Source: Candidatus Promineifilaceae bacterium (GTDB lineage: Bacteria; Chloroflexota; Anaerolineae; Promineifilales; Promineifilaceae). Taken from it: 62,465 nucleotides of DNA. Of the stretch, positions 1-62,465 are shown one piece after another. A program made the position numbers and the translations under genes. Positions within the stretch are counted from its first letter, which is position 1. Each line of letters starts with the position of its first letter. Under the pieces are notes generated by a model. That model was not told the DNA's origin. It did no database searches and saw only the letters and a list, made by a program, of their open reading frames with translations. The stretch is from NCBI GenBank assembly GCA_041745395.1, contig JBGTIZ010000183.1, positions 1 to 62,465 on the forward strand, written 5' to 3'.

Positions 1-2015
1 CTGGTCAGCACCAAATCAGATGCTTGCGCCGCTTCGCGCAGGGCATCCCCTTGCAGGCGGTCGCTTCCTTGGTGGAGCAGGGTGCGCAGGTGGGGGGTGA
101 ACTTTTCCTTTTCCTGTTCCCAGTTGGTCACGACAGAGGTGGGGCAGATGAGCAAAATGGGGGCGGGCAGAGTGCCCATCTCTTCTTTCAGTTGTTGGGT
201 GAGGGTCAGGGTCTGGATGGTCTTGCCAAGGCCCATGTCGTCGGCCAAAATAACGCCCATCCCCCAGCGGCGGGCAAAGTGGAGCCATGAGTAGCCATAT
301 TGTTGATAGGGTCGCAGGGTCGCTTGCAGGCCGTTTGGCGGGGGAAGCACCTCCACTTTTTCGTCCCCTTGCAGGCGGTTGAGCCAGCTTTGGAGCCAAT
401 CATCTAGCTCGACCCCTTCAAAAGGCAGGCCAGTCTCGGTTTTGCTTTGGCCGGTCAGCCCCAGCTTGGCCGCTTCCTGTAGGGAGATTGTCCCCTCTAG
501 CTCTTGCTCTTCCCAGAAGCGAATGGCCGCCTCGATTTGCTCAGGGTCGAGCTGTACCCATTGGCCGCGAATTTGCACGAGGGGGGATTTGAGGGCGACC
601 AGCGCGTCGAATTCGTCTCGGTTTAGCTTGGTGTCGCCGAGGGCGAGTTCCCATTTGTATTGCACCAGATTATCGAGGGTGAGATGGCCGGAAGACACGG
701 CCGTGCCTCCTCCACTGCTCCCCTGCTTACTCAGCCGCAGACGCATCCCCAGCCGCGTGCCTGGCTTATTCCACCAGGGCGGCGTGAGCAGTCCAAAGCC
801 CGCCCTCTGCAACTGCGGCGCACATTGCCGCAAAAACGCATACGCCTCAGCCGTGGTCAGGGCGACCTGCGTCGGGTTGCGCTGTTGCAGACTGCGCTCA
901 ATCGGCTTGAAAAAGCGGGCGGCATACCCCAGACCCGTCAGGAGCCGCTCCTGTGGGCGGTCAAAATGACGGTCAAGCGTTTGCAGGACACTCCCCTTCG
1001 TTTTCCACACCTCACCAGCGGGCACAACCAAGCTCGCCTCGTCCCGCGCCTGCAATAAATAATGCAACTGCCACGCCGCTTCCCCCTTTTTGCTCTGTTT
1101 ATGTTTTTGCTGGGCAGGAGCCTCCAGCCGCAGGGCAACCCGATAAAATTTGTCGCCCGCCACGGTCAGGGCGCGTTCCCAAGCGCGGAAACTGCTGGCA
1201 AAATGTTGTAGTTGTCCCGCGCTGGCATTTTTCACGGTGGGGTCGGTGGCGAAGAGGGCGCGGAGCCAGGCACTGGCGGGGTCGTTGTCGGTGGGCAGGT
1301 ATAGCTCTTGCCGCGTGGCCCAATCACGCACGGCCGTGTCCAGCATATGATTCACAAAACTTTCCAAAATAGCTCGAGGGGGAAGCGTCTCCGCTGGGTC
1401 AGCCGCCTCCGCTCGACAGACGGGGGGCATGCCCAAAGCCAGCCGCGCCATGCGCTCCGCTTCGCTGTCCCCATCCACCACCGGTTGCCACCGCGCTTCA
1501 AACTGGGCTAGTGGCCCCTGTTGAACCAGCGTGGGGCGATACAACTGCCGCGCCAGCAGTTCCAGCACAAACGCAAACGTCGTTTGCCAATACTGGCTGT
1601 CCACGCCCAAGCGTACCTGCATCGGTAGCGGATGCTGATGCAAATGGAGCAGGAGTTGCCACGTCGCTTCGCTGGTTAGCGATAGGCCGGGCATAGACCA
1701 CGGCAATAGCTGGAGCGGTTTGTTGTCTTGCTCCCAGCTATGGGGCAGGCCGGGCGAGGGCACGGGGCCAAACTGGTTGGTCGGTAGCCAGAGGGTGAGG
1801 CTCTCGGTGGCGATTTTTTTGCCCAAGCTGGGGAGGAGCTGGCTAAGGCTGTGGCGCAAATCTTTGGCGCTGGCGGCGAAGGGGTGGGGCTGGCTGGATT
1901 TTTTGCGACGGTCGCGGCTGGGCTGGTCGGCGGTGGCTGTTTCAGCCCAGAGGAACACACGGCCGTGGGCTTGCGCGTCCGTCGGGGTTAACCAATGTAA
2001 ATGGAGAAGTAACAT
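1..2015 (-). CDS. SNF2/RapA-family helicase, N-terminal ~670 aa (partial; continues past the left edge)
   Basis: Absent from the ORF track because it has no stop codon inside the window. Manual minus-strand translation from ATG 2015-2013 is open down to position 3: MLLLHLHWLTPTDAQAHGRVFLWAE...ATLRPYQQYGYSWLHFARRWGMGVILADDMGLGKTIQTLTLTQQLKEE...LICPTSVVTNWEQEKEKF. LRPYQ and DDMGLGKT (219-242) are SNF2 ATPase motifs Q and I. The short ORFs listed for 16-2133 are shadows of this frame. Confidence 0.85.
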   Translation of the reverse strand, partial: MLLLHLHWLTPTDAQAHGRVFLWAETATADQPSRDRRKKSSQPHPFAASAKDLRHSLSQLLPSLGKKIATESLTLWLPTNQFGPVPSPGLPHSWEQDNKPLQLLPWSMPGLSLTSEATWQLLLHLHQHPLPMQVRLGVDSQYWQTTFAFVLELLARQLYRPTLVQQGPLAQFEARWQPVVDGDSEAERMARLALGMPPVCRAEAADPAETLPPRAILESFVNHMLDTAVRDWATRQELYLPTDNDPASAWLRALFATDPTVKNASAGQLQHFASSFRAWERALTVAGDKFYRVALRLEAPAQQKHKQSKKGEAAWQLHYLLQARDEASLVVPAGEVWKTKGSVLQTLDRHFDRPQERLLTGLGYAARFFKPIERSLQQRNPTQVALTTAEAYAFLRQCAPQLQRAGFGLLTPPWWNKPGTRLGMRLRLSKQGSSGGGTAVSSGHLTLDNLVQYKWELALGDTKLNRDEFDALVALKSPLVQIRGQWVQLDPEQIEAAIRFWEEQELEGTISLQEAAKLGLTGQSKTETGLPFEGVELDDWLQSWLNRLQGDEKVEVLPPPNGLQATLRPYQQYGYSWLHFARRWGMGVILADDMGLGKTIQTLTLTQQLKEEMGTLPAPILLICPTSVVTNWEQEKEKFTPHLRTLLHQGSDRLQGDALREAAQASDLVLT

Positions 2016-2140
2016 TTGTTTGTTTGGTGTTGGCTATGGTTGGTTTATGGGGATTGGCGGGTCAGCAACGATAATGACACGCTCGAATTATGACGTAAAA
2101 GCAATCTCCCTTCAACTCGCCCACCCGCGATGATTGAACC

Positions 2141-2150
2141 CACGGCCGTG
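2141..2150. repeat. One of 57 perfect copies of the iterated palindrome CACGGCCGTG
   Basis: Self-complementary decamer read directly from the sequence. The full coordinate list is in the first finding. This copy and the one at 2243 sit in inverted 17-nt contexts (TTGAACCCACGGCCGTG / CACGGCCGTGGGTTTCAA) that flank the terminator hairpin. Confidence 0.95.
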
Positions 2151-2182
2151 TCCACTTTTTAAGTGACGCGCTCCCCGTAGAT

Positions 2183-2215
2183 AAAAAGGGTGTCCATCTG
2201 ACCAGATGGACACCC
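2183..2215 (-). terminator. Rho-independent terminator downstream of the antitoxin gene
   Basis: Perfect 12-bp stem GGGTGTCCATCT (2188-2199) / AGATGGACACCC (2204-2215) with a 4-nt loop. On the minus strand the stem is followed by a T run (complement of AAAAA 2183-2187). Confidence 0.6.
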
Positions 2216-2294
2216 TTTGATGATAGGTGTTTGTGGATAAACCACGGCCGTGGGTTTCAATTCGTCTAGCTACCGCCCGTATTCACGCGCCAGC

Positions 2295-2779: not shown

Positions 2780-3697
2780 ATGTCATCCCCCACCCCATCC
2801 CTGCCCCGCCGCCTGTTGGACAATGCGCCCCTGGTGGTCTTTTTTTTACTGCTGTTCGATAGCTTTCACCTCATTTTTGCCCGCCTGCTGGCGCCGCTGT
2901 TGCCCCCGCTGGTCGCCTCCTTTTATGTCATGGCGATTGCCACGGTGCAGTTGGGGGTGGGCATGATTTGGCTAGGCCGATTGCGGTGGCGGGTGTTGTG
3001 GGATCATTTTTGGTTTTTTGCGGCCGTGGGCGGCTTGGTCGGGGGGGCGATGGTGTTCAGCTACACCTCGATGACCTACATTGACCCCGGTACGGGGTCT
3101 TTGCTGGCGCGGGCTTCGACCATTTTTTCGATTGGTTTTGGACTGGTGTGGTTGCGGGAGCGGCTCAATCGGTTGGGGTGGGTGGGCACGGCCGTGGCTC
3201 TGGTCGGCGTGGTCATCATCAGCTTTCAGCCGGGGGATTTTTGGCAGTTGGGGGCACTGTTTGTGCTGGGGTCGTCGTTTATGTACGCCCTGCACGCGGC
3301 CGTGGTCAAGCGGTATGGGGGGGAGATTGATTTCGCCAACTTCTTCTTTTTTCGGGTGCTGGGCACGTCGGTGATTTTGTTCACGGCCGTGGTAGCGGGG
3401 GGCGCGTGGGAATGGCCGAGTACGACGGCATGGCTCATCCTCCTGCTGACGGCCACGGTCGATGTCGTGCTGAGTCGGGTGCTGTATTACCTCGTCCTGC
3501 GCCGCATCGAGATGAGCTACCACGCCATTATTTTGACGCTCAGCCCGGTCATCACCATTTTTTGGTCGTGGCTCTTCTTTACCCAGTTGCCCACATGGCA
3601 AGGCATCGGCGGAGGGTTGCTGACCATTGCAGGCGTGGCTTTGGTCACGCGCAGTCGGCAAAAAGTCACTCCGCTTCAGCCTGCTCCAATAACGTAG
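2780..3697 (+). CDS. DMT-superfamily (EamA-like) transporter
   Basis: 305 aa with about 10 hydrophobic helices in two similar halves. Gly-rich helix ends are typical of EamA repeats. Confidence 0.7.
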   Translation: MSSPTPSLPRRLLDNAPLVVFFLLLFDSFHLIFARLLAPLLPPLVASFYVMAIATVQLGVGMIWLGRLRWRVLWDHFWFFAAVGGLVGGAMVFSYTSMTYIDPGTGSLLARASTIFSIGFGLVWLRERLNRLGWVGTAVALVGVVIISFQPGDFWQLGALFVLGSSFMYALHAAVVKRYGGEIDFANFFFFRVLGTSVILFTAVVAGGAWEWPSTTAWLILLLTATVDVVLSRVLYYLVLRRIEMSYHAIILTLSPVITIFWSWLFFTQLPTWQGIGGGLLTIAGVALVTRSRQKVTPLQPAPIT

Positions 3698-4847
3698 CCA
3701 AGCGGGTCATGCTACTGCTGACGAGCGGGGGCGGTGGCTCCTCCATGGTGACCAACATGGCCGCGACCTTGGCCTGTCGCGCTTTCAAGTCAGCTACGGC
3801 TACGCCTGCCCCTTTGCCCTCGACGGACTTCACGGCCGTGCGTCGGTTAACCACCAGCTGATCCCACAAAATTTGGCACACGGCCGCCAGTGGTGGGGCG
3901 ATAATCAAGCCCCACACCCCATACACATCCGCCAAGGCCAACAGCATCAGCAGGGTCAGGATGGGATTGTAGAGATGGTCGTTGGAGAGGTGTGGCGCCA
4001 CCAAATAGTGCAAAAAGAGAATGACCAATAGCGTATACACGACCGTCCAAAGCGTGACGGAGAGACCCGTTAGCAAGCCGAGTAGCAAGGGTGGGATCAG
4101 GGCTAAAATGACCCCCACCACGGGGATGATCAAAGCGAATGCACCCAGCATGGCCAGCAGGGCGGGATAGGGGGAGCCAATGACCCAATAGCCCACGCCC
4201 AGCAGGACGCCCGCCAAAAAGGCTTGCGCCAGCTCACTGCGAATATATGTGCCCAGACCCAACTCGACCAACCCCCAAATTTCACGCGCCTGTGTCCGCT
4301 GTCCAGCCGGCAACAGGGAGAGCCATAATCGCTCAAAATGGCTCTGGTCTATGCCCCAATAAATGCTCAAAAAGAGAATAATCAACGCCCCGCTAACAAA
4401 CCCGAAAATACCCTGGGTGAAGCCCAGAACGGCCGGCAACACAATCTCTCCCTGCTCGCCCAAAATGGTCGAAAATAGTTCGCTAGGGGGGGGCAGACGG
4501 GCATAGAGCAATTCTTGGAACGAGCTACCCACTAACCATTCTGGTTGATGCCATTTATCCTCGCTCGCAAGTTGTTGCCCCAACTCCTCAAGGTCAACGA
4601 TGGCGGCTCCTGTGCCCAGCACGAGCAGGGAACCAAGGCCAGCCAAGGCCGCTACCAGCAGAAAAATCACCCCCACGCGCATAATCCACGTTTGCCCGTG
4701 CGGCCGCCGCACGAGGGGGCGCACAGTTGCCACTACGGCCAAGGAGATGAAGACGTAGAGGACGACGACGCGAAATTGCCACAGTAAAGCCAAGGCAAGG
4801 AGGGTCGTCATCACGGCCGTGGCAATGCGCAAAAGTTGCTTGGTCAT
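3666..4847 (-). CDS. AI-2E family (PerM/UPF0118) transporter
   Basis: 393-aa polytopic protein. The core segment YIRSELAQAFLAGVLLGVGYWVIGSPYPALLAMLGAFALIIPVVGVILALIPPLLLGL is typical of the AI-2E family. The 3-prime end overlaps the convergent EamA gene by 32 nt. Confidence 0.8.
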   Translation of the reverse strand: MTKQLLRIATAVMTTLLALALLWQFRVVVLYVFISLAVVATVRPLVRRPHGQTWIMRVGVIFLLVAALAGLGSLLVLGTGAAIVDLEELGQQLASEDKWHQPEWLVGSSFQELLYARLPPPSELFSTILGEQGEIVLPAVLGFTQGIFGFVSGALIILFLSIYWGIDQSHFERLWLSLLPAGQRTQAREIWGLVELGLGTYIRSELAQAFLAGVLLGVGYWVIGSPYPALLAMLGAFALIIPVVGVILALIPPLLLGLLTGLSVTLWTVVYTLLVILFLHYLVAPHLSNDHLYNPILTLLMLLALADVYGVWGLIIAPPLAAVCQILWDQLVVNRRTAVKSVEGKGAGVAVADLKARQAKVAAMLVTMEEPPPPLVSSSMTRLATLLEQAEAE

Positions 4848-6145
4848 GCTTCCTCCGACTCGCTAGCGGATTCTAACAACGCGTCGAGTTCCGCTGTAAT
4901 CGCCTCAATTTCGTCCATCACCTGCTCCATTTGCGCCACTTGCTCCTCAGAGCCGTCGGGCTTCACCCGCGTCTGCTGGCGCAGGTCTTGGATCAGTTCC
5001 TGGGCGGCGTAGCGCAACCGACTAGCAAAATCACGGCCGCCGACACTCTCTGGCTCGCCGTTGGGCTTAAACACAAAATGATTCAGCAAAAGCTGAATCA
5101 TGGCCGCCATGGGAATAGCCATCAGCGCACCGGGCAAGCCCAGCAACGTGCTAAACGCAAACAACGCCAGCAAGGTAACAAAGGGGTTCACGCCCACCGT
5201 GCGGCGCATGATGCGCGGCACAAGAAAATAGTTTTCGATTTGTTGGATGATAACCGTGGCCACAATAACCCACAGGAGCTTGTCAGGGCCTAAGGTCAGA
5301 GCCACTAAGCCCGCCGGGATGGCTCCTAGCAGTGGTCCAATCAATGGCACAGCTTCCATCAGCCCCGCCACCAGGGCCAAAACAAGCAGAGAGGGCAATC
5401 CGATGAGCCAATAAGCCACGAAAGACATCACCCCGATGACGAGCATAAGTAGACCTTGCCCCGCCATATAAGCCCCAATTTTGGTCTCCATCGTGGTAAT
5501 TAGTTCGCCAATGCTTTCCCGCTGATCCTTGGGGCCGAGCATGAGCAGGGCGCGGATGATGCGCGGGCCGTCGAGTGTCCAATAATAGGCTAAAAGGAAG
5601 AGGACGATAACGGTGAAGAACCCGCTCACGGCCGTGGACAAATAAGCTAGCATTTGCTCGGCCGATTCTAGCATCCCACCCTCCGCGGGCCGGCCTATTT
5701 GTTGGATGGGGTCGAGAATGGATAATGTATCGGGCAAGAGGGCATTGAGGCTGTCCAGGAACAGGCCCGGATCATCCTCCCGCCATTCGCGCACGCTTTG
5801 GTAAGTAGCGGGCACAGATTTCGTAATCGCGGTCGTTTGTTCGACAATGAGCGGAAACAGCAGGAAGATGAACCCCGCCAACCCCGCTAGGAGCAAAAGG
5901 TAGACCAAAATCACGCCCACTTTGGGCGGCACACCGCGCCGATGCAACCACGCCACCACCAGCCTTAGCACGGTGCCGATGACGATGGCGATGAACAGCA
6001 CAAAGAGGATTTGGTAGAAGAGGTAGAGGAGCCAAAAGCCGAGACCCACGGCCGCTAAAACAAGCGTGCCCCACACCACTTGTCCAAATGTCCAATTTGC
6101 TGGAGATAGAGCTGGCGATGAAGCTGGGGTAGGCGTATCGGACAT
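4844..6145 (-). CDS. AI-2E family transporter (tandem paralogue)
   Basis: LIGLPSLLVLALVAGLMEAVPLIGPLLGAIPAGLVAL...IIQQIENYFLVPRIMRRTVGVNPFVTLLALFAF. It has an acidic coiled C-terminal tail. Its stop overlaps the next gene's start by 4 nt (ATGA), so the two are probably co-transcribed. Confidence 0.8.
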   Translation of the reverse strand: MSDTPTPASSPALSPANWTFGQVVWGTLVLAAVGLGFWLLYLFYQILFVLFIAIVIGTVLRLVVAWLHRRGVPPKVGVILVYLLLLAGLAGFIFLLFPLIVEQTTAITKSVPATYQSVREWREDDPGLFLDSLNALLPDTLSILDPIQQIGRPAEGGMLESAEQMLAYLSTAVSGFFTVIVLFLLAYYWTLDGPRIIRALLMLGPKDQRESIGELITTMETKIGAYMAGQGLLMLVIGVMSFVAYWLIGLPSLLVLALVAGLMEAVPLIGPLLGAIPAGLVALTLGPDKLLWVIVATVIIQQIENYFLVPRIMRRTVGVNPFVTLLALFAFSTLLGLPGALMAIPMAAMIQLLLNHFVFKPNGEPESVGGRDFASRLRYAAQELIQDLRQQTRVKPDGSEEQVAQMEQVMDEIEAITAELDALLESASESEEA

Positions 6146-6678: not shown

Positions 6679-7020
6679 TTAGGAAGATGGGCCTTTTAGC
6701 TCTTCAGGCACGCCGTGCATAAAAGCCAAAAACACAAGCTCTTCATCCTTGGCCTGAACGGCGTGATATTCACCCATATCAAAGGTTAGCAACATGCCTT
6801 GCCCGAACTGTTGCGGCTCTTGGTCGCCGCCTGAAAACAGGCCACTGCCTTTTAGAATGAGAATGTGCAAGGGGGAATGGGGCGCATTGTGCTCGGCAAT
6901 AGATTGGCCGGGCTTGAGGGCAAAACGCAACACACGGCCGTGTTCATCTACAAATAACGGCTCGGCATGCGGATTGCGGTCGTGAAAGATGATGTTTTCA
7001 TAGACTGGAATGGTTAGCAT
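6679..7020 (-). CDS. Cupin-domain protein
   Basis: 113 aa with a small beta-barrel pattern: LKPGQSIAEHNAPHSPLHILILKGSG...MGEYHAVQA, i.e. His-containing cupin motifs 1 and 2. Confidence 0.7.
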   Translation of the reverse strand: MLTIPVYENIIFHDRNPHAEPLFVDEHGRVLRFALKPGQSIAEHNAPHSPLHILILKGSGLFSGGDQEPQQFGQGMLLTFDMGEYHAVQAKDEELVFLAFMHGVPEELKGPSS

Positions 7021-7518: not shown

Positions 7519-7620
7519 GATTACCTCAGGGCATTCATGGGGTTTGAACTGGTTTTGGGAAAGGGTATTATTATCATGATACGCTCCACGGCCGTGGGGC
7601 ACATCAGCCGTTCAGCGGGT

Positions 7621-10600
7621 CTAGCTCTCCCCCACTTGGGGGATTCGCCCCACCACCACCTTATGCACCTGTCCATCATCCACCAGCGGAATAGAGGGAC
7701 TGGGTAACGGCACGCCATCCAAGCACACCCGCTGGAAATCCCCTGAGTTTTTCACCACAATGTGGTACGTCGCACGGCCGTGTCGATACCGCATCTCAAA
7801 CCCAGCCCAACTGGCAGGAATACACGGCTCTATCCGCAACGTCTCCCCCACCTTGCGCAAGCCCAAAATCCCCTCCACCCCCAGTCGCCACATCCAGCCC
7901 GCCGACCCCGTATACCACGTCCAGCCGCCCCGCCCCACATGCGGGGCTACCCCATACACATCGGCCGCCAGCACATATGGTTCTACTTTGTATTGGGCTA
8001 CCTCCACGGCCGTGTCCCCGTGGCTAATCGGGTTCAGCAGAGCAAACAAGCCGTGCGCCACATCCCCCTGCCCTAGCTCTGCAAACGCCCACGCCGTCCA
8101 CAGCGCGGCGTGGGTATACTGGCCGCCATTCTCCCGAATGCCCGGCAAATACCCCTTGATATAGCCGGGGTCGCGTGCTGTTTTATCAAACGGCGGCGTG
8201 AGCAATAGCACCAGCCGCTCCTGCTCTAGCACGAGGCGGTCATAGCTGGAAGCCATCGCCTGTTGCGCCCGTTGCGGGTCGGCCGCGCCCGAAAGCACCC
8301 CCCACGCTTGGGCCAGCCCATCAATCTGGCACTCCTGATTTTGGGCCGACCCCCACGCCACCCCCTCATCATCAAAAGCGCGGCGATACCCTTCCCCATC
8401 CCAGCCATGTTGCTCGATGGCCTTTTGGTAGGCCACCGCTTGCTGGCGATAGCCATCAGCACCGTCCGCTCCCACCCGCTCGCACAAATCCGCAAAATCG
8501 TTCAGCGTTTTGTAGAGGAACCAGCCCAGCCACACGCTTTCCCCGCGCCCTTCAATGCCTATCCGATTCATGCCGTCGTTCCAGTCGCCGCCGCCCATTA
8601 GCGGTAGGCCGTGTTGCCCCGTCGTAGACCCCTTCTGCAAGGCGCGGCGGCAATGCTCGAAGAGGCTATATTGTTCACTACCCGTCTCGTAGGCTCCATA
8701 CCGCTCTTCTTCCCCCTTAGCTAGCGGTGCGCCCAGCAAGAAGGGGATTTCCTCGGCCAAAATCGTCTCGTCCCCTGTGCTGACCACATAGGCGGCCGTC
8801 ACATAGGGCAACCACAGCAAATCGTCGCTGATGCGCGTGCGCACCCCGCGCCCCGAGGGGGGATGCCACCAGTGCAACACGTCGCCCGCGTCGAATTGGT
8901 GGTGGGCGGCGCGCAGAATGTGTGCCCGCGCCAAGTCGGGGCGGGTGTGGAACAGGGACAGCACATCTTGCAATTGGTCGCGGAAGCCATATGCCCCGCT
9001 AGACTGGTAGAGCGCGGAACGCCCCCATATCCGGCACGCCACGTTTTGGTACAACAGCCAGCGGTTGAGCATCACATTCATAGCGGGGTCGGGCGTGTTC
9101 ACCTTAACTGCTCCGAGCAGGTCATCCCACAGGGTTTGCACGTCGTTCCACACGGCCGTGCAACTCCCCTCCTGCTGGAACTCCTCAATCACCGCCAACG
9201 CTTCCTCTTGATTCGCGCCCTGCCCCAGTAGAAAATAAACTTCTTCACTGCCGCCCGGCGGCAAATCGAAATGCACTTGCAAAACGGCACAGCTATCCGT
9301 GCCCGCCGCCACCTGATTATTCAGGCCGATGCGCCCCAGCGCGGCCGGCTGGCGCAAATCTCCCAAGCGGCCGATAAACTCCGCCCTATCGGCCGTGAAA
9401 CTGTGCGGCTCTTTCGAGGCGGCCACAAAGGCCACCCGCTCCCCAAATTCCGTGTTGTACGGGTTACGCGCCAGCAGGGCATACTGCTCTCGCTCATAAC
9501 TGGGGATGAGATAGGGTTGGGTCGTGCCTCGGCTCGTGCCCAGCACCCATTCGGCATAGAGGGTGAGGGTGAGGGTGAGGCGACGCGGCCGTGTCGACTT
9601 ATTTTCCAAGCGCACCTGCATCATTTTGACGGGTGACTCGGGCGCGACAAACAGCCGCGTCTGCTGTTGCAGGCCGTGGCTGTGATGCTCAAAAATGGTG
9701 TAGCCTGCCCCGTGGCGCACCAAATAAGGCGCGTCAGCCGGGGCGGGTTGGGGGGTGGGCGACCAGATTTCGGCCGTTTCTTCATCGCGCAGGTAAAGCG
9801 CTTCGCTGGGAACGTCGCTGACAGGGTCGTTGCGCCATGATGTCAGCCGATTTTCGCCACTATTCACCGCCCACGTAAACCCGCCGCCCGTCTCGGAAAC
9901 GATAAAGCCCACTTCTTCGTTGGCAATCACATTGATCCACGGCGCGGGAGTGCTTTCTCTGGGCCGCAAGTAGATTTGGTACTCCTTGCCATCGGCGCTG
10001 AACCCGCCGAGGCCGTTGTCGAATTGCCAATCCGTCGGCCGTGGCAACCCGTCCTTCTGTCCCTCGTCCCTTTCGCCCCCGTCCCCTGTCGCCACAAAGG
10101 CGGGCAACGGCGTGGGCTGGGCTAAGAAATTGCCCAACTGCTCGCCAATCGTGCCCCCTGAGCCATCCAATACCACCCGCGCCGTCGTTTGGAGCAGGAT
10201 GCGGTCGGCCAGCCCCATTTGGTCTTCGCGCAAGACAAACAAGCCGCCCCGCCGATTGAGCCAGCTTTCGCTGTGGGTGCGGTGGATGAGGTGGTAGATG
10301 AACCCTTGCACCTCTTGGCCGTAATTTGATTCTTGCTGATTGAGAATGACCAAATCAATTTGCAAATCGCGCCGCCGCCAATAGGTGTGGGCGCGGAGCA
10401 GGTCTAGCAACAGTTCGCCATCTTCTTCGCGGTGCAATTTCACCAGCAAGATGGGGTAATCGCCCGAAATGCCAAAGGCCCACAGCCCTGTTTGCCCCTT
10501 TGTGTTGCTGGCTAAGATGTCTGCGTCGGCACGGCCGACGGGGTGCGGGTAGAGCAAGAGCGACAAAATTCGTTGGATTTGCTCCAGTTGCGGGGTGGAT

Positions 10601-17887: not shown

Positions 17888-18208
17888 TTAGCGGCGGTCT
17901 TCTATCCGCCCAAAAGTGGTTTCGAGGGCATTCTTGACCTTGTCTGCCGCCCCATCGACGGCCTGCTCCCAAGTGGCGGCTTGTTCGCTGGCGATAGCCC
18001 GGGGCAGGCCCGCCAATGAAACTTCTAATAAGCAACGGATATCGTCATTGCCCCCTTTTTTGTTGCTGTTTTCATCGCTTAGGTGGACTTCTACCCAGGT
18101 GATTTTTTCGGTAAAGCGGTCAAGGGTTCCCCGCACGGCCGTTTCAATCTCAGCGATCATCGTGTCATTGCCTTCAATGTTTCCATCGGTGTTAACCTGA
18201 ATGTGCAT
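17888..18208 (-). CDS. hpf: Short HPF/RaiA-family ribosome-associated (hibernation) protein
   Basis: MHIQVNTDGNIEGNDTMIAEIETAVRGTLDRFTEKITWVEVHLSDENSNKKGGNDDIRCLLEVSLAG...AVDGAADKVKNALETTFGRIEDRR fits the stand-alone ~105-aa HPF/RaiA subfamily pattern (M.IQVN...RF...I..VEVHL.DEN..KGG.DD..C..E..L.G). Confidence 0.75.
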   Translation of the reverse strand: MHIQVNTDGNIEGNDTMIAEIETAVRGTLDRFTEKITWVEVHLSDENSNKKGGNDDIRCLLEVSLAGLPRAIASEQAATWEQAVDGAADKVKNALETTFGRIEDRR

Positions 18209-19597: not shown

Positions 19598-19612
19598 GTC
19601 TTCTCCTTTCAT

Positions 19613-49610: not shown

Positions 49611-49805
49611 GTCGGGGCTTGTCCTATGTCGGAAAAAATAGAGATAAGCCCTATTTTGATAGACATTTGTCTAACTGCCCATCTTCGTGTCTAGCTCTAA
49701 TGAAAATCAGATGCAGGGGACACGGCCGTGGGATTCCCTACACTGGCTATACCACCGTTACGTATCTATAACCTCCCTAAACTGTCACCAAAATGCGCTT
49801 TTTGG

Positions 49806-56659: not shown

Positions 56660-59600
56660 ATGAAACGTTATGTATCTAATCAAACTGGTTTTGTCAGCTT
56701 TCTGCTGGCTAGCTTGCTAATGGTTGTCGCTTTGAGCCTGTGGGCTTCGGCGGCAGTAGCTGATGAACCGAAACTGGAAGAATACACGGCCGTGGTAGAG
56801 CCAGCTCTCTTGGCCGAAATAGAAGCCAACGGCAAAGCCAGTTATCTTGTTTATCTTAAAGAAACAGCCGACCTCTCCCCCGCCGTCAACATGGATTGGG
56901 AAGCGCAGGGTTGGTTTGTTTACAACACCCTCCGCGAAGTCGCTCAGCGTTCACAAGCGGACATCGTTTCACTCCTCAAAAATGATGATGTCGAATATAA
57001 AACATTCTTCATTGCCAACGCCATTCAGGTTACTTCTGGCGTAGAAACCTTAAACTCCCTTGCCGCACACCCCAGCGTGGCTTCCATCGAAGCCTCTAAA
57101 ACCTACGCTGTGCCTGAGCCAGAGCGTATTTCTCCCAATAGCCCTCTAGCCATAGAGTGGGGTGTTTCTATCATTCGTGCAGACGAAGTGTGGAACGATT
57201 TGGGCGTTTTCGGGGCTGGCATCGTGGTGGCCTCCATTGATACCGGTGTGCAATATGACCACCCCGCCCTGCAAGGCAAATACCGGGGTACACACACGGG
57301 TAGCCATGACTTCAACTTCTTTGATCCATCCAATACCTGTGGTGGCGTAGTCTGTGACAACAATAACCACGGCACGCACGTCACCGGAAGCATGCTAGGT
57401 GACGATGGCGGCGCGAACCAGATTGGTGTTGCCCCCGAGGCTATCTGGATTGCCGCCAAAGGGTGCGAAGCTAATTCCTGTAGTGATGCTTCTCTGCTTA
57501 GCTCTGCTGAGTGGATGCTGGCTCCCTGCGGTTTTGGTGATGTGCCCGGTGACCCCAGTTGTAATCCCAATATGCGTCCCCATGTCCTAAACAACTCTTG
57601 GGGCGGTGGCGGTGGCAATAGCTGGTATCAGGCGTCAGTTGATGCTTGGCGTGCGGTTAGCATTATTCCCGTCTTTTCCGCAGGCAATAGTGGCCCCGGC
57701 ACGGGCACAATTGGCTCTCCAAGTGACTACTGCAATGTGATGAGCATTGGTGGTACAAACATCAGTGATGGTATGTACCCTTCTAGTAGCCGTGGGCCTG
57801 GCGCTTTCGCTGGCTGTACCGATAAGCCTGATATTAGTGCCCCCGGTCAAGGTGTGCGCTCTTCGGTAGCTGGCAGTGGCTACGCTACGTTTAGCGGTAC
57901 TTCGATGGCCTCTCCGCATGTTTCTGGCTGTATTGCGTTGATGATGTCAGTTGCCCCCAATCTTGACTATGACCAAATTTACACGATTCTGACCACCACG
58001 GCCGAAGACCTTGGTGCGCCCGGATTTGATTACAATTACGGTAATGGTCGCATAGATTGTTATGAAGCGGTCTTGGAAGCGCAGATTTTAGCTGGGCCGA
58101 CAGGCACCATTGAAGGAACCGTGACGGCTGATGGCAGTGGTGATCCACTGGCTGGCGTGAGCGTCGTAGCGACCCTGAATGTGACCACGACCAAGAACGC
58201 GACGACCAATGGTGCGGGTGAATACACCATGACCTTCTCCCCTGAAGGCACCTACACCATGACGGCTTCTGTGTTTGGGTATTTGCCGCAAACGATCTCT
58301 GGGGTACAGGTTATTTCTGGCTCTGTTACCACCCGAGATTTTGTTTTGGAGCAGGCACCTAGCCACACGGTGAGTGGTGTCGTAACGGATGCAACCACAG
58401 GCTGGCCGCTTTATGCCTCCATCGAAATTGGTGGAGCCGATATAGACCCCATTTGGACAGACCCCGTAAATGGTAGCTACAGCATCTTGTTACCAGAAGG
58501 TATGACGTATACCTTCGCCGTTAACGCTTGGGTGGCTGGGTATGAAACCGCTATGCGCGAAGTCGGCCCGCTGACGAGCGACCAGACCGAAGATTTTGGA
58601 CTTGACGTAGACGCAGTTGCCTGTATCGCTCCAGGTTATGTTGTTTCTGGCGGTTTTCTCGAAAACTTCAACAGTGGTGCATTGCCAGCAGGCTGGGCGG
58701 TGATAGATAACCTTGGTGGTGGGCACGATTGGCGTTTTAATAACCCTGGTAATCGTGCCAACCTGACTGGTGGTACAGACGGCTTCGCCATTGTGGATAG
58801 TGACTTCTACGGCTCGGGCAACAGCCAAGATACAGAGCTATGGACACCCTCCTTGGATATGTCTGGCCAAGCCAGCGTGACGCTGGAATTCAAGTATGAT
58901 TTCCGCTGGTGGTCCGGCGGTGGTGACGAAGTTGCCAATGTGGATGTCAGCATCGATGGTGGCACCATTTGGACGAATGTTTGGACTCGCTCTGGCGCGA
59001 GTGACCGTGGTCCAAAAACGGCCGTGGTCGATATTTCCGCCATTGCCGCTAATGAGGCGGATGTTATCGTCCGTTTCCACTATTTTGATGCTACCTTTGA
59101 TTATTGGTGGCAAGTTGATGATGTCAAAATCGGTAACATCATTTGTACACCAGAAGCTGGGGGCTTGCTGGTCGGTCAGGTGTATGATGGCAACACGGCC
59201 GCGACCTTAACCGGCGCGATGGTTAATGGTGAGGAAGACAGCACGACCACGGCCGAGACACCCAATGACTCGAACGTGGATGATAGCTTCTACACCCTCT
59301 TTGTGCCCGCAGGAAGCAGTGTCGTTACAGCCAGCATGTCTGGTGGGTACGTTGACCAAGTAGAAACGGTTAACATCACCGATGGCACAACAACGGCGCA
59401 AGACTTCTATTTGGATGCGGGCTGGCTGATGGCTAACCCGACCGAGATAGAGCTTACTTTAGAGTTTGGCGACAGCGCGACTGTGCCCTTGACGCTGACC
59501 AACAGTGGCAATGTGCCCGCTAGCTACGCGCTAATGGTTGGAGCCGCCAGCGAAGATTTTGAGACGGCCTTCCCGCCAGCAGACTGGACGGTTGTTAACA

Positions 59601-62212
59601 ATGGTGGCACATGCGTGTGGCAACGCAACGATGCGTGGCCGAATGAGAACTATGCGGGTGGGGATGGCTTCTCCGCCGCCGCTGATTCTGACGCATGTGG
59701 TCAGGGCACGACAATGAACACAGAGTTGCATAGCCCAGCTCTGGATTTATCAGCGGCCTCTGTGGCCAGTCTGGAGTTCGTGGCTTCCTATTTCCACCTG
59801 GGTAGTAGCTCCTTCCGTGTCCACGTGAGCGATGATGGGGGTAGCAGTTGGGACACCCTGCTGACTTGGACGGCTAGCTCTTCAGCGCAAGGGCCGGGTA
59901 CACTCGTCTCCCTTGACCTGACGCCTTATGTGGGTTCTAGTGAGGTCATCGTTAGCTTCCATTACCAAGCTGGCTGGGATTGGTGGGTCCAAGTAGACCA
60001 AGTGCGCGTGTTGGCTGATGTCGGCCCGTGGCTGGCGTTAAACCCCAGCAATGGGAATATTGGCGACAACAGTGATGTGATGGTCGATGTTGACGTGACC
60101 ACCAGCAATTTGCCCTCGCCGGGAATTTACACGGCCGTGATTGCCGTCACTGAAGATACCCCCTACATGGTTCCCAGCATCCCCGTCACCTTAACCGTGA
60201 CCGCTTCCCCCGACTTGGCCTTCCTCGAAGGGACAGTCCACAGCACCGGTTACTGTGATGTGAATTCATTCCCCGCCGCCGGCGCGGAAGTGGTTGTTAG
60301 CAGTGGCATGGACAGTTGGACAACCTATGCTGATGGTAACGGCTATTACTCACTCTATATCAACGACAGCTACAGCCCAGTTGATATTGACGTGACCGCT
60401 CCTAACCATGAAGCGGGCAGTGCCACAGGCGTGGTCTTGGTTGGTCAACAAACCACTACCCAAGATTTCGATTTACGCTTGTTGGAACCCTGCGTTGACG
60501 TTGCCTCCGAAGAGTTCGATGTTACGCTGACGGCTGATACAGTCGCCACCTATACGTTGACCATCAATAACCATGGTGGTGCGGCCTTGAACTGGACGGT
60601 TGACGAAGCCGAAGGCACTGCGGCTGGCTTGAGTGCGGCCTCCGCGCCCGTGGTGGACACGGTGTCAATCCCCAATAATGCGGGTAATGCCGTTGATTTG
60701 GTCGGTTTACTTGGCGAGGCGTTGACCTTTAACACAGATTCCACGGCCGTGACCGGTATGGTGGTTGATTGTAATGCGGAGCCAGGCATTTTGATTACGG
60801 ATGATGGCTCGGTTGAGAATGGCTATAGTGGCAACCCAGCTACAATCAGTCAGGTTATCTTTGTAGACCGGTTCACGCCAGACAGCTACCCCGCTTCGTT
60901 TAGCGCAGTGTGTGTGGCTTTTGTTAGCCTTGGACCCAGCAGTGTGAACTTTAGCATTGTGCTGTATGCGGCGGATGGCCCCAGTGGCCAACCCGGTACC
61001 TTGTTAGGCTCTCTGCCCGCCACGGCTACCGGCTTACCCGGTGGTACTGGTGCGCCAGTTTGGCACAGCTATGACATCTCCAGCTTGGGTGTTTCCGTGG
61101 CCTCTGGGGATGTTTATATTGGGGTAACGTATGCGCCATCTAACCCGAACGTCTTCATCGCTTCGGATGAGTCTACGGGTAACCCTGTGGGCTTTGGCGG
61201 TGGCTATTGGTGGAATAACAGTGCCGCAGCTTGGGCGACGGTGCAGTCTACTTATCCTGCGTATCGCTCCTTGATGGTTCGTCCAGTCCAGGCTCTGGGC
61301 GGTTGTAACGTGCCCACCGATTTGCCGTGGTTGAGCGTCATGCCAGAGATGGGGACAACGGCCGCTGATAGTAGCGACCAAGTATCCGTCACCTTTGATA
61401 CCACGGGGCTGATGCTGGGAAGCACCTACACAGGTACATTGTGTATCAACAGCGATGACCCCATGAATCCACAGGTGACCGTGCCCGTTACTTTGACGAT
61501 TGAAGCTCCTGAGCCGGCTATCACGCTTGATGTGACGGTGGGTACGGAAGCTGGCATGTGCGGTACGGATAGCGCCATTACCGTGGTAGAAGGCACCGTG
61601 GTGTACTACTGCTACACCGTCGAAAACACGGGTAATGTGACGTTGCCCACACATGTCATCACTGACACGGTTTGGGGTCATATCGATACATTCGTGTATG
61701 ATCTGCATCCTGGTATGAGTGAATCAGTCGTCTATAGCCAAACGATGGCGACGTCGGTTGACTCCGTGGCAACGTGGGAGGCTTCCCATGCTGGCCTTGG
61801 TGTCTCCGCAATGGCGACAGATGATGTCGCGGTCATGGTGGTAACGCCGGGTGTGGTGGTAGACACGGCCGTGGACGCGCAAAGCGGCCTGGCTGGTTCT
61901 ACGGTCACCTACACGGTTCACATTACCAACACAGGCGACCTGACCGACACCTTCGACATTGCCCTGAGCAACGAGACGTGGGACACCACAGCCCCAGCTA
62001 GCGTTACGCTGGCGGCGGGTGAACACGCCATGTTTGATGTCGTGGTGACGATTGCGGCGGATGCGCAAGCGGATGACAGCGATAGTGTGCTAGTCACGGC
62101 AACCTCGCAAATGGATGACACGGTGATGGGTGGGGTAACGTTGACCACCACGGCCGTGGAACCCGAACCAACCGAATACACCAGCTACTTGCCGATTGTT
62201 GTTCGTCCGTAA
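56660..62212 (+). CDS. Giant secreted S8 serine protease, paralogue (CarboxypepD_reg-like domains, MAM/choice-of-anchor-J-like domains, one CARDB/NEW3-like module, identical YLPIVVRP tail)
   Basis: Signal peptide MKRYVSNQTGFVSFLLASLLMVVALSLWASAAVA. Catalytic residues: D (VVASIDTGVQ), H (NNHGTHVTGSM), S (SGTSMASPHVSGCIALM). GTIEGTVTADGSGDPLAGVSVVA is the regulatory-like beta sandwich. GWAVIDNLGGGHDWRF and DWTVVNNGGTCVWQRN mark the MAM-like domains. The protein ends EPEPTEYTSYLPIVVRP. Confidence 0.9.
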   Translation: MKRYVSNQTGFVSFLLASLLMVVALSLWASAAVADEPKLEEYTAVVEPALLAEIEANGKASYLVYLKETADLSPAVNMDWEAQGWFVYNTLREVAQRSQADIVSLLKNDDVEYKTFFIANAIQVTSGVETLNSLAAHPSVASIEASKTYAVPEPERISPNSPLAIEWGVSIIRADEVWNDLGVFGAGIVVASIDTGVQYDHPALQGKYRGTHTGSHDFNFFDPSNTCGGVVCDNNNHGTHVTGSMLGDDGGANQIGVAPEAIWIAAKGCEANSCSDASLLSSAEWMLAPCGFGDVPGDPSCNPNMRPHVLNNSWGGGGGNSWYQASVDAWRAVSIIPVFSAGNSGPGTGTIGSPSDYCNVMSIGGTNISDGMYPSSSRGPGAFAGCTDKPDISAPGQGVRSSVAGSGYATFSGTSMASPHVSGCIALMMSVAPNLDYDQIYTILTTTAEDLGAPGFDYNYGNGRIDCYEAVLEAQILAGPTGTIEGTVTADGSGDPLAGVSVVATLNVTTTKNATTNGAGEYTMTFSPEGTYTMTASVFGYLPQTISGVQVISGSVTTRDFVLEQAPSHTVSGVVTDATTGWPLYASIEIGGADIDPIWTDPVNGSYSILLPEGMTYTFAVNAWVAGYETAMREVGPLTSDQTEDFGLDVDAVACIAPGYVVSGGFLENFNSGALPAGWAVIDNLGGGHDWRFNNPGNRANLTGGTDGFAIVDSDFYGSGNSQDTELWTPSLDMSGQASVTLEFKYDFRWWSGGGDEVANVDVSIDGGTIWTNVWTRSGASDRGPKTAVVDISAIAANEADVIVRFHYFDATFDYWWQVDDVKIGNIICTPEAGGLLVGQVYDGNTAATLTGAMVNGEEDSTTTAETPNDSNVDDSFYTLFVPAGSSVVTASMSGGYVDQVETVNITDGTTTAQDFYLDAGWLMANPTEIELTLEFGDSATVPLTLTNSGNVPASYALMVGAASEDFETAFPPADWTVVNNGGTCVWQRNDAWPNENYAGGDGFSAAADSDACGQGTTMNTELHSPALDLSAASVASLEFVASYFHLGSSSFRVHVSDDGGSSWDTLLTWTASSSAQGPGTLVSLDLTPYVGSSEVIVSFHYQAGWDWWVQVDQVRVLADVGPWLALNPSNGNIGDNSDVMVDVDVTTSNLPSPGIYTAVIAVTEDTPYMVPSIPVTLTVTASPDLAFLEGTVHSTGYCDVNSFPAAGAEVVVSSGMDSWTTYADGNGYYSLYINDSYSPVDIDVTAPNHEAGSATGVVLVGQQTTTQDFDLRLLEPCVDVASEEFDVTLTADTVATYTLTINNHGGAALNWTVDEAEGTAAGLSAASAPVVDTVSIPNNAGNAVDLVGLLGEALTFNTDSTAVTGMVVDCNAEPGILITDDGSVENGYSGNPATISQVIFVDRFTPDSYPASFSAVCVAFVSLGPSSVNFSIVLYAADGPSGQPGTLLGSLPATATGLPGGTGAPVWHSYDISSLGVSVASGDVYIGVTYAPSNPNVFIASDESTGNPVGFGGGYWWNNSAAAWATVQSTYPAYRSLMVRPVQALGGCNVPTDLPWLSVMPEMGTTAADSSDQVSVTFDTTGLMLGSTYTGTLCINSDDPMNPQVTVPVTLTIEAPEPAITLDVTVGTEAGMCGTDSAITVVEGTVVYYCYTVENTGNVTLPTHVITDTVWGHIDTFVYDLHPGMSESVVYSQTMATSVDSVATWEASHAGLGVSAMATDDVAVMVVTPGVVVDTAVDAQSGLAGSTVTYTVHITNTGDLTDTFDIALSNETWDTTAPASVTLAAGEHAMFDVVVTIAADAQADDSDSVLVTATSQMDDTVMGGVTLTTTAVEPEPTEYTSYLPIVVRP

Positions 62213-62259
62213 GGATTAAACAACATCAGCCCGTAGTGGCTCTACAGAAGTAACCTTGA

Positions 62260-62293
62260 GGAGGTGGTTCGTTACGAACCACCTCCTTTTTTT
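62260..62293 (+). terminator. Rho-independent terminator of protease gene 2
   Basis: GGAGGTGGTTCG (62260-62271), loop TTA, CGAACCACCTCC (62275-62286), then TTTTTTT (62287-62293). It differs from the gene-1 copy by a compensatory pair (G-C to A-T). Confidence 0.85.
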
Positions 62294-62406
62294 GTGCATG
62301 AAATTAGCATGAAAAATTATGACTAGTAGTGTCTTGTCATGCTTAATTTGATAATAATCTCTTTGCCGTGTATTCTTCTCGCCAAACAATCAAAAGGAGA
62401 AAAAAC

Positions 62407-62465
62407 ATGGCAAGAAAACAGGATTATAAGGTTTGTTTAGCTGAAGCAGAACGCGATCATCTTAA
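62407..62465 (+). CDS. 5-prime end of an ORF cut by the window edge; possibly an IS630-type transposase or other HTH protein
   Basis: SD AAAAGGAGAAAAAAC-ATG. MARKQDYKVCLAEAERDHL resembles the M.RK..Y.V.L...ER..L N-terminus of IS630-family transposases. Only 19 codons are visible. Confidence 0.3.
   Translation, partial: MARKQDYKVCLAEAERDHL

Follow-up and report, generated by a model that had tools for sequence, protein, structure and literature searches.

Why does a single 10-bp palindrome occur almost once per kb in a stretch of ordinary bacterial chromosome? The question is raised by contig JBGTIZ010000183.1 (GenBank: GCA_041745395.1) of a Candidatus Promineifilaceae bacterium from the phylum Chloroflexota, whose positions 1 to 62,465 were analysed as a whole and are called the window here. 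The palindrome is CACGGCCGTG, a 10-bp word that is its own reverse complement and has a G+C content of 80%, in a window with 54% G+C. An earlier note on this DNA had proposed that it behaves like the highly iterated palindrome (HIP) HIP1 of cyanobacteria, with a different word. The null models, the unrelated flanks and the substitution origin described below support that proposal. What the window holds is a true HIP-like system that uses a new word, belongs to a new phylum and comes in lineage-specific dialects.

HIP1, on which Robinson reportedly published in 1995, was recognised some 30 years ago. Where it comes from and what it does are still disputed, the candidates being a repair ratchet, a role in chromosome structure and a signal for uptake or recombination. 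It has the sequence GCGATCGC and is found in cyanobacteria with 0.2 to 2.7 copies per kb, which is 16 to 317 times the expectation (PMC4390886; PMC5861425). A second, independent case of the HIP1 type in another phylum indicates that the phenomenon is no cyanobacterial peculiarity.

Abundance of the palindrome

A pattern search detected 57 exact copies of CACGGCCGTG in the window, at precisely the start positions that the earlier note had listed. This corresponds to 0.91 copies per kb, a figure for one contig of 62 kb. The hyper-abundance claimed for the word held against every null model, all of them run on the window. In 100 dinucleotide-preserving shuffles the word was found 0.08 times on average and at most once. 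Markov models derived from the window expect 0.09 to 0.14 copies at orders 0 to 2 (0.14 at order 2), 0.44 at order 3 and 2.9 at order 4; at orders 6 to 8 the expectation nears the observed count, with the word effectively memorised by the model. The coding nulls are based on a greedy map of 38 open reading frames (ORFs), which covers 86% of the window and contains 52 of the copies. Shuffling synonymous codons within these ORFs, with the proteins and the codon usage unchanged, gave a mean of 3.0 and a maximum of 8 copies, and shuffling the order of the codons gave 0.3. Because the shuffles and the Markov models fall so far short, the excess is not due to base, dinucleotide or codon composition or to the encoded proteins.

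CACGGCCGTG is the top-ranked 10-mer of the window and the following ranks are taken by its own one-base shifts. Xu, Lawrence and Durand (2018, PMC5861425) set two thresholds for a HIP, a density of 0.2 copies per kb or more and an excess of over 16-fold on the order-2 Markov expectation, and the word lies above both values in the window. Neighbouring copies are separated by 24 to 7064 nt, and their spacing looks roughly random (coefficient of variation 1.15). The core hexamer CGGCCG is found 139 times, compared to 26 expected from the dinucleotides, and 156 of its 278 half-sites in the window are flanked by CA.

Reading frames, protein imprint and variants

Most copies lie in ORFs (52 of 57, 91%) and five lie between them, with densities of 0.97 and 0.56 per kb, respectively. 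The spacer copies at 2141, 2243, 24919, 25225 and 49721 had been recognised as such before, whereas another one described as a spacer copy, at 24224, falls in a doubtful ORF of 116 aa. The earlier statement that all three reading frames are used is correct, but their use is very uneven: 40 of the ORF copies are read as T-A-V (xxC-ACG-GCC-GTG), ten as H-G-R (CAC-GGC-CGT-G) and two as x-R-P-x (xCA-CGG-CCG-TGx). The last frame is rare because R-P must then precede C, W or a stop.

The tripeptide T-A-V is found 44 times in the window proteins where 9.6 are expected, which is the strongest over-representation of any tripeptide. The word spells 40 of these 44 and all ten H-G-R, and SAV, TAL, TAI and TGV are at or under expectation. 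A substitution process at the DNA level appears to bring the genome to roughly one site per kb, at the expense of amino acids under weak constraint, and the first rank of T-A-V illustrates how strongly such a process can reshape proteins. The suggestion that the word is selected at the DNA level is thus right about the level, as the excess survives the synonymous null, but a mutational or repair drive fits equally well as selection.

Variants with one mismatch are fewer than had been assumed. There are 22 of them, of which 21 deviate at positions 1, 2, 9 or 10. The two variants that had been given as examples are CACGGCCGCC, which matches at 8 of 10 positions, and ACGGCCGTGG, which is the same site one base later. 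The core is broken once at position 3 and never at positions 4 to 8, which is chance level. As neutral decay predicts about as many broken cores as there are sites, this suggests that the sites are actively kept or restored.

One S8 peptidase gene (50954-56245, 1763 aa) has no copy of the word and three cores in 5.3 kb, with about five copies expected (Poisson P ~0.006). The G+C content at its third codon positions is 0.52, compared to 0.65 to 0.71 in the adjoining genes. The gene may be a more recent arrival.

A shared core with lineage-specific dialects

The earlier note had pointed to the CGGCCG embedded in the word, and this core matters strongly: it is hyper-abundant also in the closer relatives, with differing flanks. 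CACGGCCGTG is one lineage's dialect of a family of iterated palindromes with a CGGCCG core, found in an Ardenticatenales/Anaerolineae-like clade of Chloroflexota. The core is kept, and each lineage has its own setting of the two outer base pairs on either side (none, NA..TN, AA..TT or CA..TG).

Loci of relatives were gathered via homology to TrkH or to the cyclic beta-1,2-glucan synthase (Cgs) of the window, blind to the word. They are more telling than a scan for the word, because the word played no part in choosing them. The best named homologues of both proteins come from Ardenticatenaceae, Anaerolineae, Caldilineaceae or Chloroflexota metagenome-assembled genomes (MAGs) with 55 to 60% identity, and a few others reach 70 to 76%. 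CGGCCG is the top 6-bp palindrome in these relatives down to about 55% identity, with 3 to 10 times the dinucleotide expectation. There are 62 copies in 17 kb of L098 (GCA_029979785.1), 63 in 13 kb of L100 (GCA_041567015.1), 35 in 7 kb of L102, 47 in 16.8 kb of L107 (4.8 expected), 43 in 19 kb of L104 and 39 in 21 kb of L105.

About 65 TrkH loci of more distant organisms, taken from an alignment-based metagenome scan, served as controls. Their observed/expected ratio for CGGCCG is about 1 and the hexamer is top-ranked in L167 only. In a lineage adjoining the enriched clade the core is avoided, with no copy in 7.9 kb of L106 (FMSI01023738.1; TrkH 53% identical) at 62% G+C, where 8.7 are expected. 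Avoidance of the core was also seen in L146, L162 and L136.

The dialects among the relatives are bare CGGCCG, NACGGCCGTN, AACGGCCGTT and CACGGCCGTG. The bare core is enriched in L098 to L102, L104 and L107, and no flank preference was detected around it in L098, L100, L101 and L104. In L102 and L046 (Ca. Hadersleviella danica JADJSZ01), C is very rare at position -1 of the core and C-A is partially preferred. L007, L032 and L059 are of the ACGGCCGT type with A at -1 in about 80% of the half-sites, and L206 carries the 8-mer ACGGCCGT with mixed outer bases. The AACGGCCGTT dialect is found in L105 (14 copies in 21 kb) and in syntenic relatives with a Cgs identity of 71 to 74%, namely L186 (GCA_016716065.1; 20 copies in 28 kb), L187 (10 in 25 kb) and L188 (GCA_003562215.1; 8 in 17 kb); together these contain at most one CACGGCCGTG. 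The CACGGCCGTG dialect is that of the window, of L001, of L103 (TrkH 76% identical) and probably of L086 (Ca. Leptofilum gracile JADJOJ01). L001 is a Logan contig of run SRR28170463 that matches 38962-41498 with 3 mismatches in 2537 nt and has the same three copies of CACGGCCGTG.

We also scanned the genomes of 185,579 species for two copies of CACGGCCGTG at a distance of 10 to 40 nt. Among the matches listed, most were chance matches in high-GC actinomycetes, and Chloroflexota turned up repeatedly among those of moderate G+C, with three Ardenticatenaceae MAGs, Chloroflexota BJ8 and CFX8, and Anaerolineae CHL1. Further Chloroflexota among the matches listed were Ca. Leptofilum gracile and Ca. 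Hadersleviella danica. A metagenome scan with TrkH alone gave no match, and a scan of viral contigs gave 17 matches, none with CACGGCCGTG at a density like that of the window. One viral contig (L195/L204, IMGVR_UViG_3300034158_000061) with 69% G+C contains 69 CGGCCG in 13 kb (5.3 per kb) and the 10-mer six times, in a flank pattern unlike that of the window.

The observed/expected ratio of CCGG is about 0.37 to 0.40 in the window, 0.21 in L102 and L046, and 1.35 in the relatives of the 6-mer type (L098/L100/L101/L104/L107). Where CCGG is depleted, in the window and in L102 and L046, C is correspondingly near absent from -1 of the core (1 to 4%).

Gain and change of sites by substitution

Sites had been predicted to be gained by substitution as for HIP1, and the alignments of orthologues agree with this. 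In the codon alignments of TrkH, Cgs, Usp and AI-2E genes, the copies line up with orthologous codons without insertions or deletions and go back to substitutions only, some of them non-synonymous. The TrkH of the window reads FTAVSAL at a place where FTATSAL or FTAISAL is found in most orthologues, and GTAVLY where they have GALLLY, GAIALY or GTMLLY, with no length change in either case. Judging from these sequences, the copies have been made in place by point substitution, synonymous where possible and amino-acid-changing where tolerated, and not by insertion of a repeat. In L103, with 70% nucleotide identity in TrkH, two of the three sites are common with the window, compared to 5.5% of aligned 10-mers that are identical (P = 0.009, from three sites only).

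Cgs, Usp and two AI-2E genes were aligned by codons with L186, L187 and L188 at about 72% nucleotide identity. Out of 11 alignable copies in the window, five stand at a AACGGCCGTT, AACGGCCGTC or TACGGCCGTA of the relatives, one at a core with other flanks and five at no core. At the five sites that match words of the relatives (Cgs alignment positions 840, 7146 and 8524, Usp 433 and AI-2E 27), only the outer base pair differs. The relatives have many AACGGCCGTT sites at which the window has none, and L206, a 71% relative, has mixed outer bases at the same orthologous positions. In the T-A-V frame the switch of the outer pair is silent (GTT to GTG, NNA to NNC). Among its three carriers AACGGCCGTT is retained at 11 of 19 sites, compared to about 22% of 10-mers overall. 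At orthologous cores, synonymous ACC/ACG change makes up most of the substitution spectrum, which is for that reason uninformative on the methylated base. The 8-bp centre thus appears to be older than the dialects; the outer pair has switched at many orthologous sites, and the gain and loss of sites is continual.

Sequence around the sites

The 25 nt on each side of the 57 copies have no common sequence, with an information content of about 0 apart from positions -1 and -9. Because the flanks are unrelated, CACGGCCGTG is neither a mobile repeat nor a peptide motif. It is not the core of a longer repeat either, as had been stated before. The flanks are unconserved except for A or C at -1 (39% of the half-sites each) and a weak G at -9 with C at +9. 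In the pooled half-sites (n=114), G is found at -9 in 60% (mirrored by C at +9; z 7.9) and at -15 in 49% (z 5.3). This holds in the T-A-V copies, where these are third codon positions, and in the H-G-R copies, where they are first positions. The AACGGCCGTT sites of L186, L187, L188 and L105 have G at -9 in 58% and at -15 in 54%. On each strand the 5' flank is skewed towards G over C, by about +0.2 across 36 nt in the window and by up to +0.39 in the AACGGCCGTT relatives, and the skew fades within about 100 nt. Around the flank-less CGGCCG of the 6-mer-type relatives, neither the G>C skew nor the -9/-15 signal was detected. G at -9 is weaker (29 to 38%) at half-sites. A protein footprint larger than the word, or repair tracts specific to one strand, may lie behind the symmetric flank signal.

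Possible drivers of the word

CGGCCG is the target of restriction-modification systems of the EagI/XmaIII/Eco52I type, and the targets of active restriction systems are normally avoided. A hyper-abundant CGGCCG implies modification without restriction, or another reader. The word could be the target of a sequence-specific protein system, divergent between lineages, that recognises two half-sites of 5 bp. The likeliest agent would be a cytosine methyltransferase of the EagI type that is specific for CGGCCG and lacks a partner restriction enzyme. Its activity would be linked to a process by which the methylatable word is fixed or retained in preference. This coupling could be biased mismatch or nick-directed repair, after Elhai's model for HIP1, or a methylation-dependent preference for self DNA in recombination or transformation. 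The latter has been reported for HIP1, which raises transformation only if it is methylated (bioRxiv 10.1101/2024.09.10.611283). Over time, such a bias would act as a ratchet and fill the genome to about one site per kb.

The methyltransferase model is favoured because the core resembles a restriction site, because the adjoining lineage (L106) avoids it and because the one-off variants sit outermost as in HIP1. The word also stands alone amid the avoidance of nearly all other short palindromes, a pattern typical of genomes with heavy restriction-modification traffic. That a CGGCCG methyltransferase without restriction drives the word, together with biased repair or self-DNA preference, is a proposal whose chances we judge to be evenly balanced. 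We are equally divided on whether an independent, Chloroflexota-wide watermarking is at work. In it, one recognition protein, or a methyltransferase together with a reader, would recognise a half-site of 5 bp, push its target to about one copy per kb, and have rewritten thousands of codons and shifted its specificity several times.

Several observations weigh against this model. A regular expression search for C5 and N4/N6 methyltransferase motifs gave no match in any of the fetched loci, and no methyltransferase, Vsr-like or MutH-like gene was found in these or in the window. To our knowledge, a continuous specificity of 10 bp exceeds that of the Type II methyltransferases, so that a second reader would be needed. 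Elhai's rule of a G before the methylated C does not hold, as G precedes 15% of the cores and A 66%, and there are just 6 copies of GCGGCCGC. The depletion of T-variants, which is the signature of very-short-patch repair, is absent, with observed/expected ratios of 1.66 for TGGCCG/CGGCCA, 1.59 for CAGCCG/CGGCTG and 1.42 for CGACCG/CGGTCG. From the window to its 72% identical relatives, 34% of the cores are conserved, compared to 17% of all 6-mers but 29 to 36% of other GC-only 6-mers; being equal to these, the positional conservation of cores is not demonstrated at about 72% identity. Finally, the sample of this genome is small, at 62 kb.

The word stands among palindromes that are mostly avoided in the window. 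GATC is found 58 times with 204 expected (0.28) and CCGG 124 times with 311 expected. CGATCG, CTTAAG, GAGCTC, GGGCCC, TCCGGA and TTCGAA have zero copies with 10 to 33 expected, and ACGCGT, ATGCAT, GCGCGC and GTGCAC have 1 to 3 copies with 15 to 32 expected. This avoidance suggests many restriction systems in the lineage.

Other explanations can be weighed against the same observations. The word might be what a competence or DNA-uptake receptor binds best, or be preferred in a recombination step, such that uptake and recombination of fragments carrying it are more frequent and the dialects follow the divergence of the receptor, as in the DNA uptake sequences (DUS) of Neisseriaceae. The density of about one per kb, the length of 10 bp, the frame preference and the peptide imprint would fit, the invariant core with outer bases set by lineage parallels the DUS dialects (PMC3630211), and a role as a signal for uptake or recombination is now being proposed for HIP1, too. 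We nevertheless regard this as unlikely: known uptake sequences are non-palindromic, enriched between genes and often arranged as inverted pairs, whereas CACGGCCGTG is sparser between ORFs; no competence gene was seen in the fetched loci of these uncultured filaments; and uptake alone does not explain the 3 to 5 bare CGGCCG per kb in relatives. A selected site of a chromosome-organising or nucleoid protein, acting as a dimer with a footprint of about 28 bp, appears quite improbable. It would account for the symmetric G at -9 and C at +9 and the G at -15, which recur in the two coding frames and at the AACGGCCGTT sites of relatives, and for the sites that L103, a relative of the same dialect, shares above background. 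Xu et al. (2018, PMC5861425) argue for selection and a nucleoid role of HIP1. On the other hand, lineages that are 72% identical in nucleotides differ in about half of the sites, G at -9 is weak or absent at half-sites, and the spacing looks random, albeit over 62 kb only.

We give almost no credence to a by-product of composition, codon usage or a frequent T-A-V or H-G-R peptide, although one frame accounts for 77% of the ORF copies and the codons ACG, GCC and GTG are common. The synonymous shuffle does not come near the observed count, the copies are spread over three frames and the spacers, the T-A-V excess comes from the word alone without any excess of SAV, TAL or TAI, and orthologues lack T-A-V at the TrkH positions of the window. 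This candidate was rejected on the synonymous null, the frames and the orthologue residues. Hardly any room is left either for the core of a dispersed mobile repeat, such as a miniature inverted-repeat transposable element (MITE) or a repetitive extragenic palindromic (REP) element, or for an assembly artefact, for which the high copy number alone would speak. Here the flanks are unconserved and the copies align to orthologous codons without indels. An artefact is disfavoured because L001, an independent assembly of the same population, has the identical three copies, and sites recur in the 76%-identical L103. The class of REP, MITE and REP doublets forming hairpins (REPIN) was rejected, as only 10 bp are conserved in contrast to units of 20 to 40 bp or more, and 91% of the copies are in ORFs while those elements are mostly extragenic.

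Comparison with known systems

HIP1 contains CGATCG, the target of an orphan methyltransferase, its one-off deviations lie at the outer positions and CGATCG is not enriched outside HIP1 (Elhai 2015, PMC4390886). The Chloroflexota word resembles it as a short GC-rich perfect palindrome found about once per kb in genes and spacers, with unrelated flanks, a substitution origin and a 6-bp core of the restriction or methylation type (CGATCG in HIP1, CGGCCG here). In both systems the one-off variants are outermost, some lineages have variant words and the hosts otherwise avoid palindromes. The two differ in the host phylum, in the word and its core, and in the length of 10 bp instead of 8. Unlike HIP1, the bare core is 3 to 10 times enriched in relatives, there are graded dialects among close relatives with outer-pair switching at orthologous sites, and the G-before-methylated-C rule does not apply.

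DUS of Neisseriaceae and uptake signal sequences (USS) of Pasteurellaceae are 10 to 12 nt long, asymmetric, found about once per kb and enriched between genes, with inverted pairs frequent at terminators, and have a known competence receptor and dialects (Frye et al. 2013, PMC3630211). CACGGCCGTG shares with them the density, a frame preference, an imprint on the proteome and an invariant core with lineage-specific outer positions, but is a perfect palindrome, denser inside ORFs and with one close pair only (32336/32360).

The very-short-patch repair of Dcm/Vsr is said to shape the abundance of CCWGG in E. coli, as reportedly described by Bhagwat and McClelland in 1992 and by Merkl et al. in 1992. 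It offers a precedent for methyltransferase-linked biased repair that raises the frequency of a methylated word. The effect in E. coli is modest and comes with T-variant depletion, whereas the enrichment here is at least 100-fold and comes without it. EagI-type systems have the identical core hexamer CGGCCG, which is hyper-abundant here and avoided in L106.

In an incomplete literature search that leaves novelty unproven, we found no report of the word or of any CGGCCG-based iterated palindrome in Chloroflexota; exact matches of CACGGCCGTG were limited to immunoglobulin and primer sequences. The dialects and the orthologous sites that differ in the outer pair only are a natural experiment. On the reading that a reader protein sets the outer bases, this protein must differ between genomes with CA..TG, AA..TT, N..N and no flanks and must be absent or paired with restriction in the avoiding lineage, which makes its gene findable by comparative genomics combined with the Nanopore methylation data that exist for wastewater MAGs. 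If so, dialects at only about 25-30% divergence would let comparative genomics identify the gene and test the models for HIP1. The word and its dialects could also serve as markers for binning and host assignment of abundant wastewater filaments.

Positions of the copies

Table 1. Copies of CACGGCCGTG and related words in the window. Rows of CACGGCCGTG are exact matches (strand "." because of the palindrome), with ORFs and frames from the ORF map.
Sequence	Position	ORF or gene	Frame	Remark
CACGGCCGTG	696..705	ORF 3-2015(-)	T-A-V
CACGGCCGTG	1329..1338	ORF 3-2015(-)	T-A-V
CACGGCCGTG	1958..1967	ORF 3-2015(-)	H-G-R
CACGGCCGTG	2141..2150	between ORFs
CACGGCCGTG	2243..2252	between ORFs
CACGGCCGTG	3187..3196	ORF 2780-3697(+)	T-A-V
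CACGGCCGTG	3382..3391	ORF 2780-3697(+)	T-A-V
CACGGCCGTG	3831..3840	AI-2E transporter 3666-4847(-)	T-A-V	gained in window only, compared to L186/L187
CACGGCCGTG	4812..4821	AI-2E transporter 3666-4847(-)	T-A-V	aligned L187 site is AACGGCCGTT (AI-2E alignment position 27)
CACGGCCGTG	5627..5636	AI-2E transporter 4844-6145(-)	T-A-V	gained in window only
CACGGCCGTG	6933..6942	ORF 6679-7020(-)	H-G-R
CACGGCCGTG	7587..7596	ORF 7024-7602(-)	H-G-R
CACGGCCGTG	7773..7782	glucan synthase 7621-16185(-)	H-G-R	AACGGCCGTT/TACGGCCGTG in relatives (alignment position 8524)
CACGGCCGTG	8005..8014	glucan synthase	T-A-V	gained in window only (alignment position 8292)
CACGGCCGTG	9151..9160	glucan synthase	T-A-V	AACGGCCGTT/C in relatives (alignment position 7146)
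CACGGCCGTG	10744..10753	glucan synthase	T-A-V	gained in window only (alignment position 5550)
CACGGCCGTG	11305..11314	glucan synthase	T-A-V	core common to relatives, L188 10-mer identical (alignment position 4959)
CACGGCCGTG	14056..14065	glucan synthase	T-A-V	gained in window only (alignment position 2190)
CACGGCCGTG	15352..15361	glucan synthase	T-A-V	AACGGCCGTT in 3/3 relatives (alignment position 840)
CACGGCCGTG	16690..16699	Usp-domain ORF 16160-17131(-)	H-G-R	TACGGCCGTA in relatives (Usp alignment position 433)
CACGGCCGTG	20793..20802	ORF 20755-21420(-)	H-G-R
CACGGCCGTG	21684..21693	ORF 21526-21813(-)	H-G-R
CACGGCCGTG	24224..24233	doubtful 116-aa ORF 23953-24300(+)		probably non-coding
CACGGCCGTG	24919..24928	between ORFs
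CACGGCCGTG	25225..25234	between ORFs
CACGGCCGTG	26654..26663	K+ channel/TrkA ORF 26198-27910(-)	T-A-V
CACGGCCGTG	26798..26807	K+ channel/TrkA ORF 26198-27910(-)	T-A-V
CACGGCCGTG	28285..28294	ORF 28217-30127(+)	T-A-V
CACGGCCGTG	30529..30538	histidine kinase 30193-31593(-)	T-A-V
CACGGCCGTG	30757..30766	histidine kinase 30193-31593(-)	T-A-V
CACGGCCGTG	30922..30931	histidine kinase 30193-31593(-)	T-A-V
CACGGCCGTG	32336..32345	doubtful ORF		first of pair 14 nt apart
CACGGCCGTG	32360..32369	doubtful ORF		second of pair 14 nt apart
CACGGCCGTG	34587..34596	amylase/pullulanase ORF 33010-39114(+)	T-A-V
CACGGCCGTG	38679..38688	amylase/pullulanase ORF 33010-39114(+)	T-A-V
CACGGCCGTG	38838..38847	amylase/pullulanase ORF 33010-39114(+)	T-A-V
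CACGGCCGTG	38907..38916	amylase/pullulanase ORF 33010-39114(+)	T-A-V
CACGGCCGTG	40255..40264	TrkH		FTAVSAL; common to L103
CACGGCCGTG	40531..40540	TrkH		GTAVLY; window-only
CACGGCCGTG	40896..40905	TrkH	x-R-P-x	TRPW; common to L103
CACGGCCGTG	41958..41967	ORF 41571-42215(+)	H-G-R
CACGGCCGTG	42125..42134	ORF 41571-42215(+)	T-A-V
CACGGCCGTG	42695..42704	ORF 42225-43169(+)	T-A-V
CACGGCCGTG	43106..43115	ORF 42225-43169(+)	T-A-V
CACGGCCGTG	43649..43658	ORF 43296-43721(+)	T-A-V
CACGGCCGTG	46491..46500	ORF 46477-47334(-)	H-G-R
CACGGCCGTG	47248..47257	ORF 46477-47334(-)	T-A-V
CACGGCCGTG	48497..48506	ORF 47853-48632(+)	T-A-V
CACGGCCGTG	48972..48981	EamA transporter 48675-49610(-)	T-A-V
CACGGCCGTG	49374..49383	EamA transporter 48675-49610(-)	T-A-V
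CACGGCCGTG	49418..49427	EamA transporter 48675-49610(-)	H-G-R
CACGGCCGTG	49721..49730	between ORFs
CACGGCCGTG	56785..56794	S8 peptidase ORF 56660-62212(+)	T-A-V
CACGGCCGTG	60130..60139	S8 peptidase ORF 56660-62212(+)	T-A-V
CACGGCCGTG	60742..60751	S8 peptidase ORF 56660-62212(+)	T-A-V
CACGGCCGTG	61864..61873	S8 peptidase ORF 56660-62212(+)	T-A-V
CACGGCCGTG	62149..62158	S8 peptidase ORF 56660-62212(+)	T-A-V
GACGGCCGTT	11585..11594			8-mer ACGGCCGT with other outer bases
AACGGCCGTT	12306..12315	glucan synthase gene		dialect of relatives; relatives without core at alignment position 3958
CACGGCCGTT	18134..18143			9/10 variant
CACGGCCGTC	30455..30464			9/10 variant
GACGGCCGTG	35656..35665			9/10 variant
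CACGGCCGTA	37952..37961			9/10 variant
AACGGCCGTT	44172..44181			dialect of relatives
AACGGCCGTG	59017..59026			9/10 variant

The close pair at 32336-32369 lies upstream of the amylase/pullulanase gene and can be folded into a stem-loop with an 11-bp stem (-25.8 kcal/mol, z -3.4).

Other features of the window

The genes of the window are ordinary chromosomal ones, among them AI-2E transporters, TrkA/TrkH, a histidine kinase and a baeRF protein. Its large proteins are the Cgs of 2854 aa, which belongs to GH94, an amylase/pullulanase of 2034 aa and two giant S8 peptidases.

Arrays of GCTGA with 3 to 5 units and a period of 8 nt (GCTGAnnn) are found at 18234-18254, 19619-19647, 22233-22253 and 26165-26194, and also at 20543. 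GCTGAAATGCTGAC has four exact copies. Some arrays precede the ribosome-binding sites of stress-type genes (ORF 17888-18208 and baeRF 18443-19612) by 15 to 35 nt, and they may be a regulator-binding element or an element of the 5' untranslated region. The strict GCTGAnnn pattern was not found in L186 to L188 or L206.

Two longer tandem repeats were also detected. A 51-bp unit is repeated 4.9 times at 17321-17572, inside a small ORF (17270-17578) with 42% G+C, and a 333-bp unit, probably a repeated Ig-like domain, is present 1.8 times at 55542-56145 inside an S8 peptidase gene.

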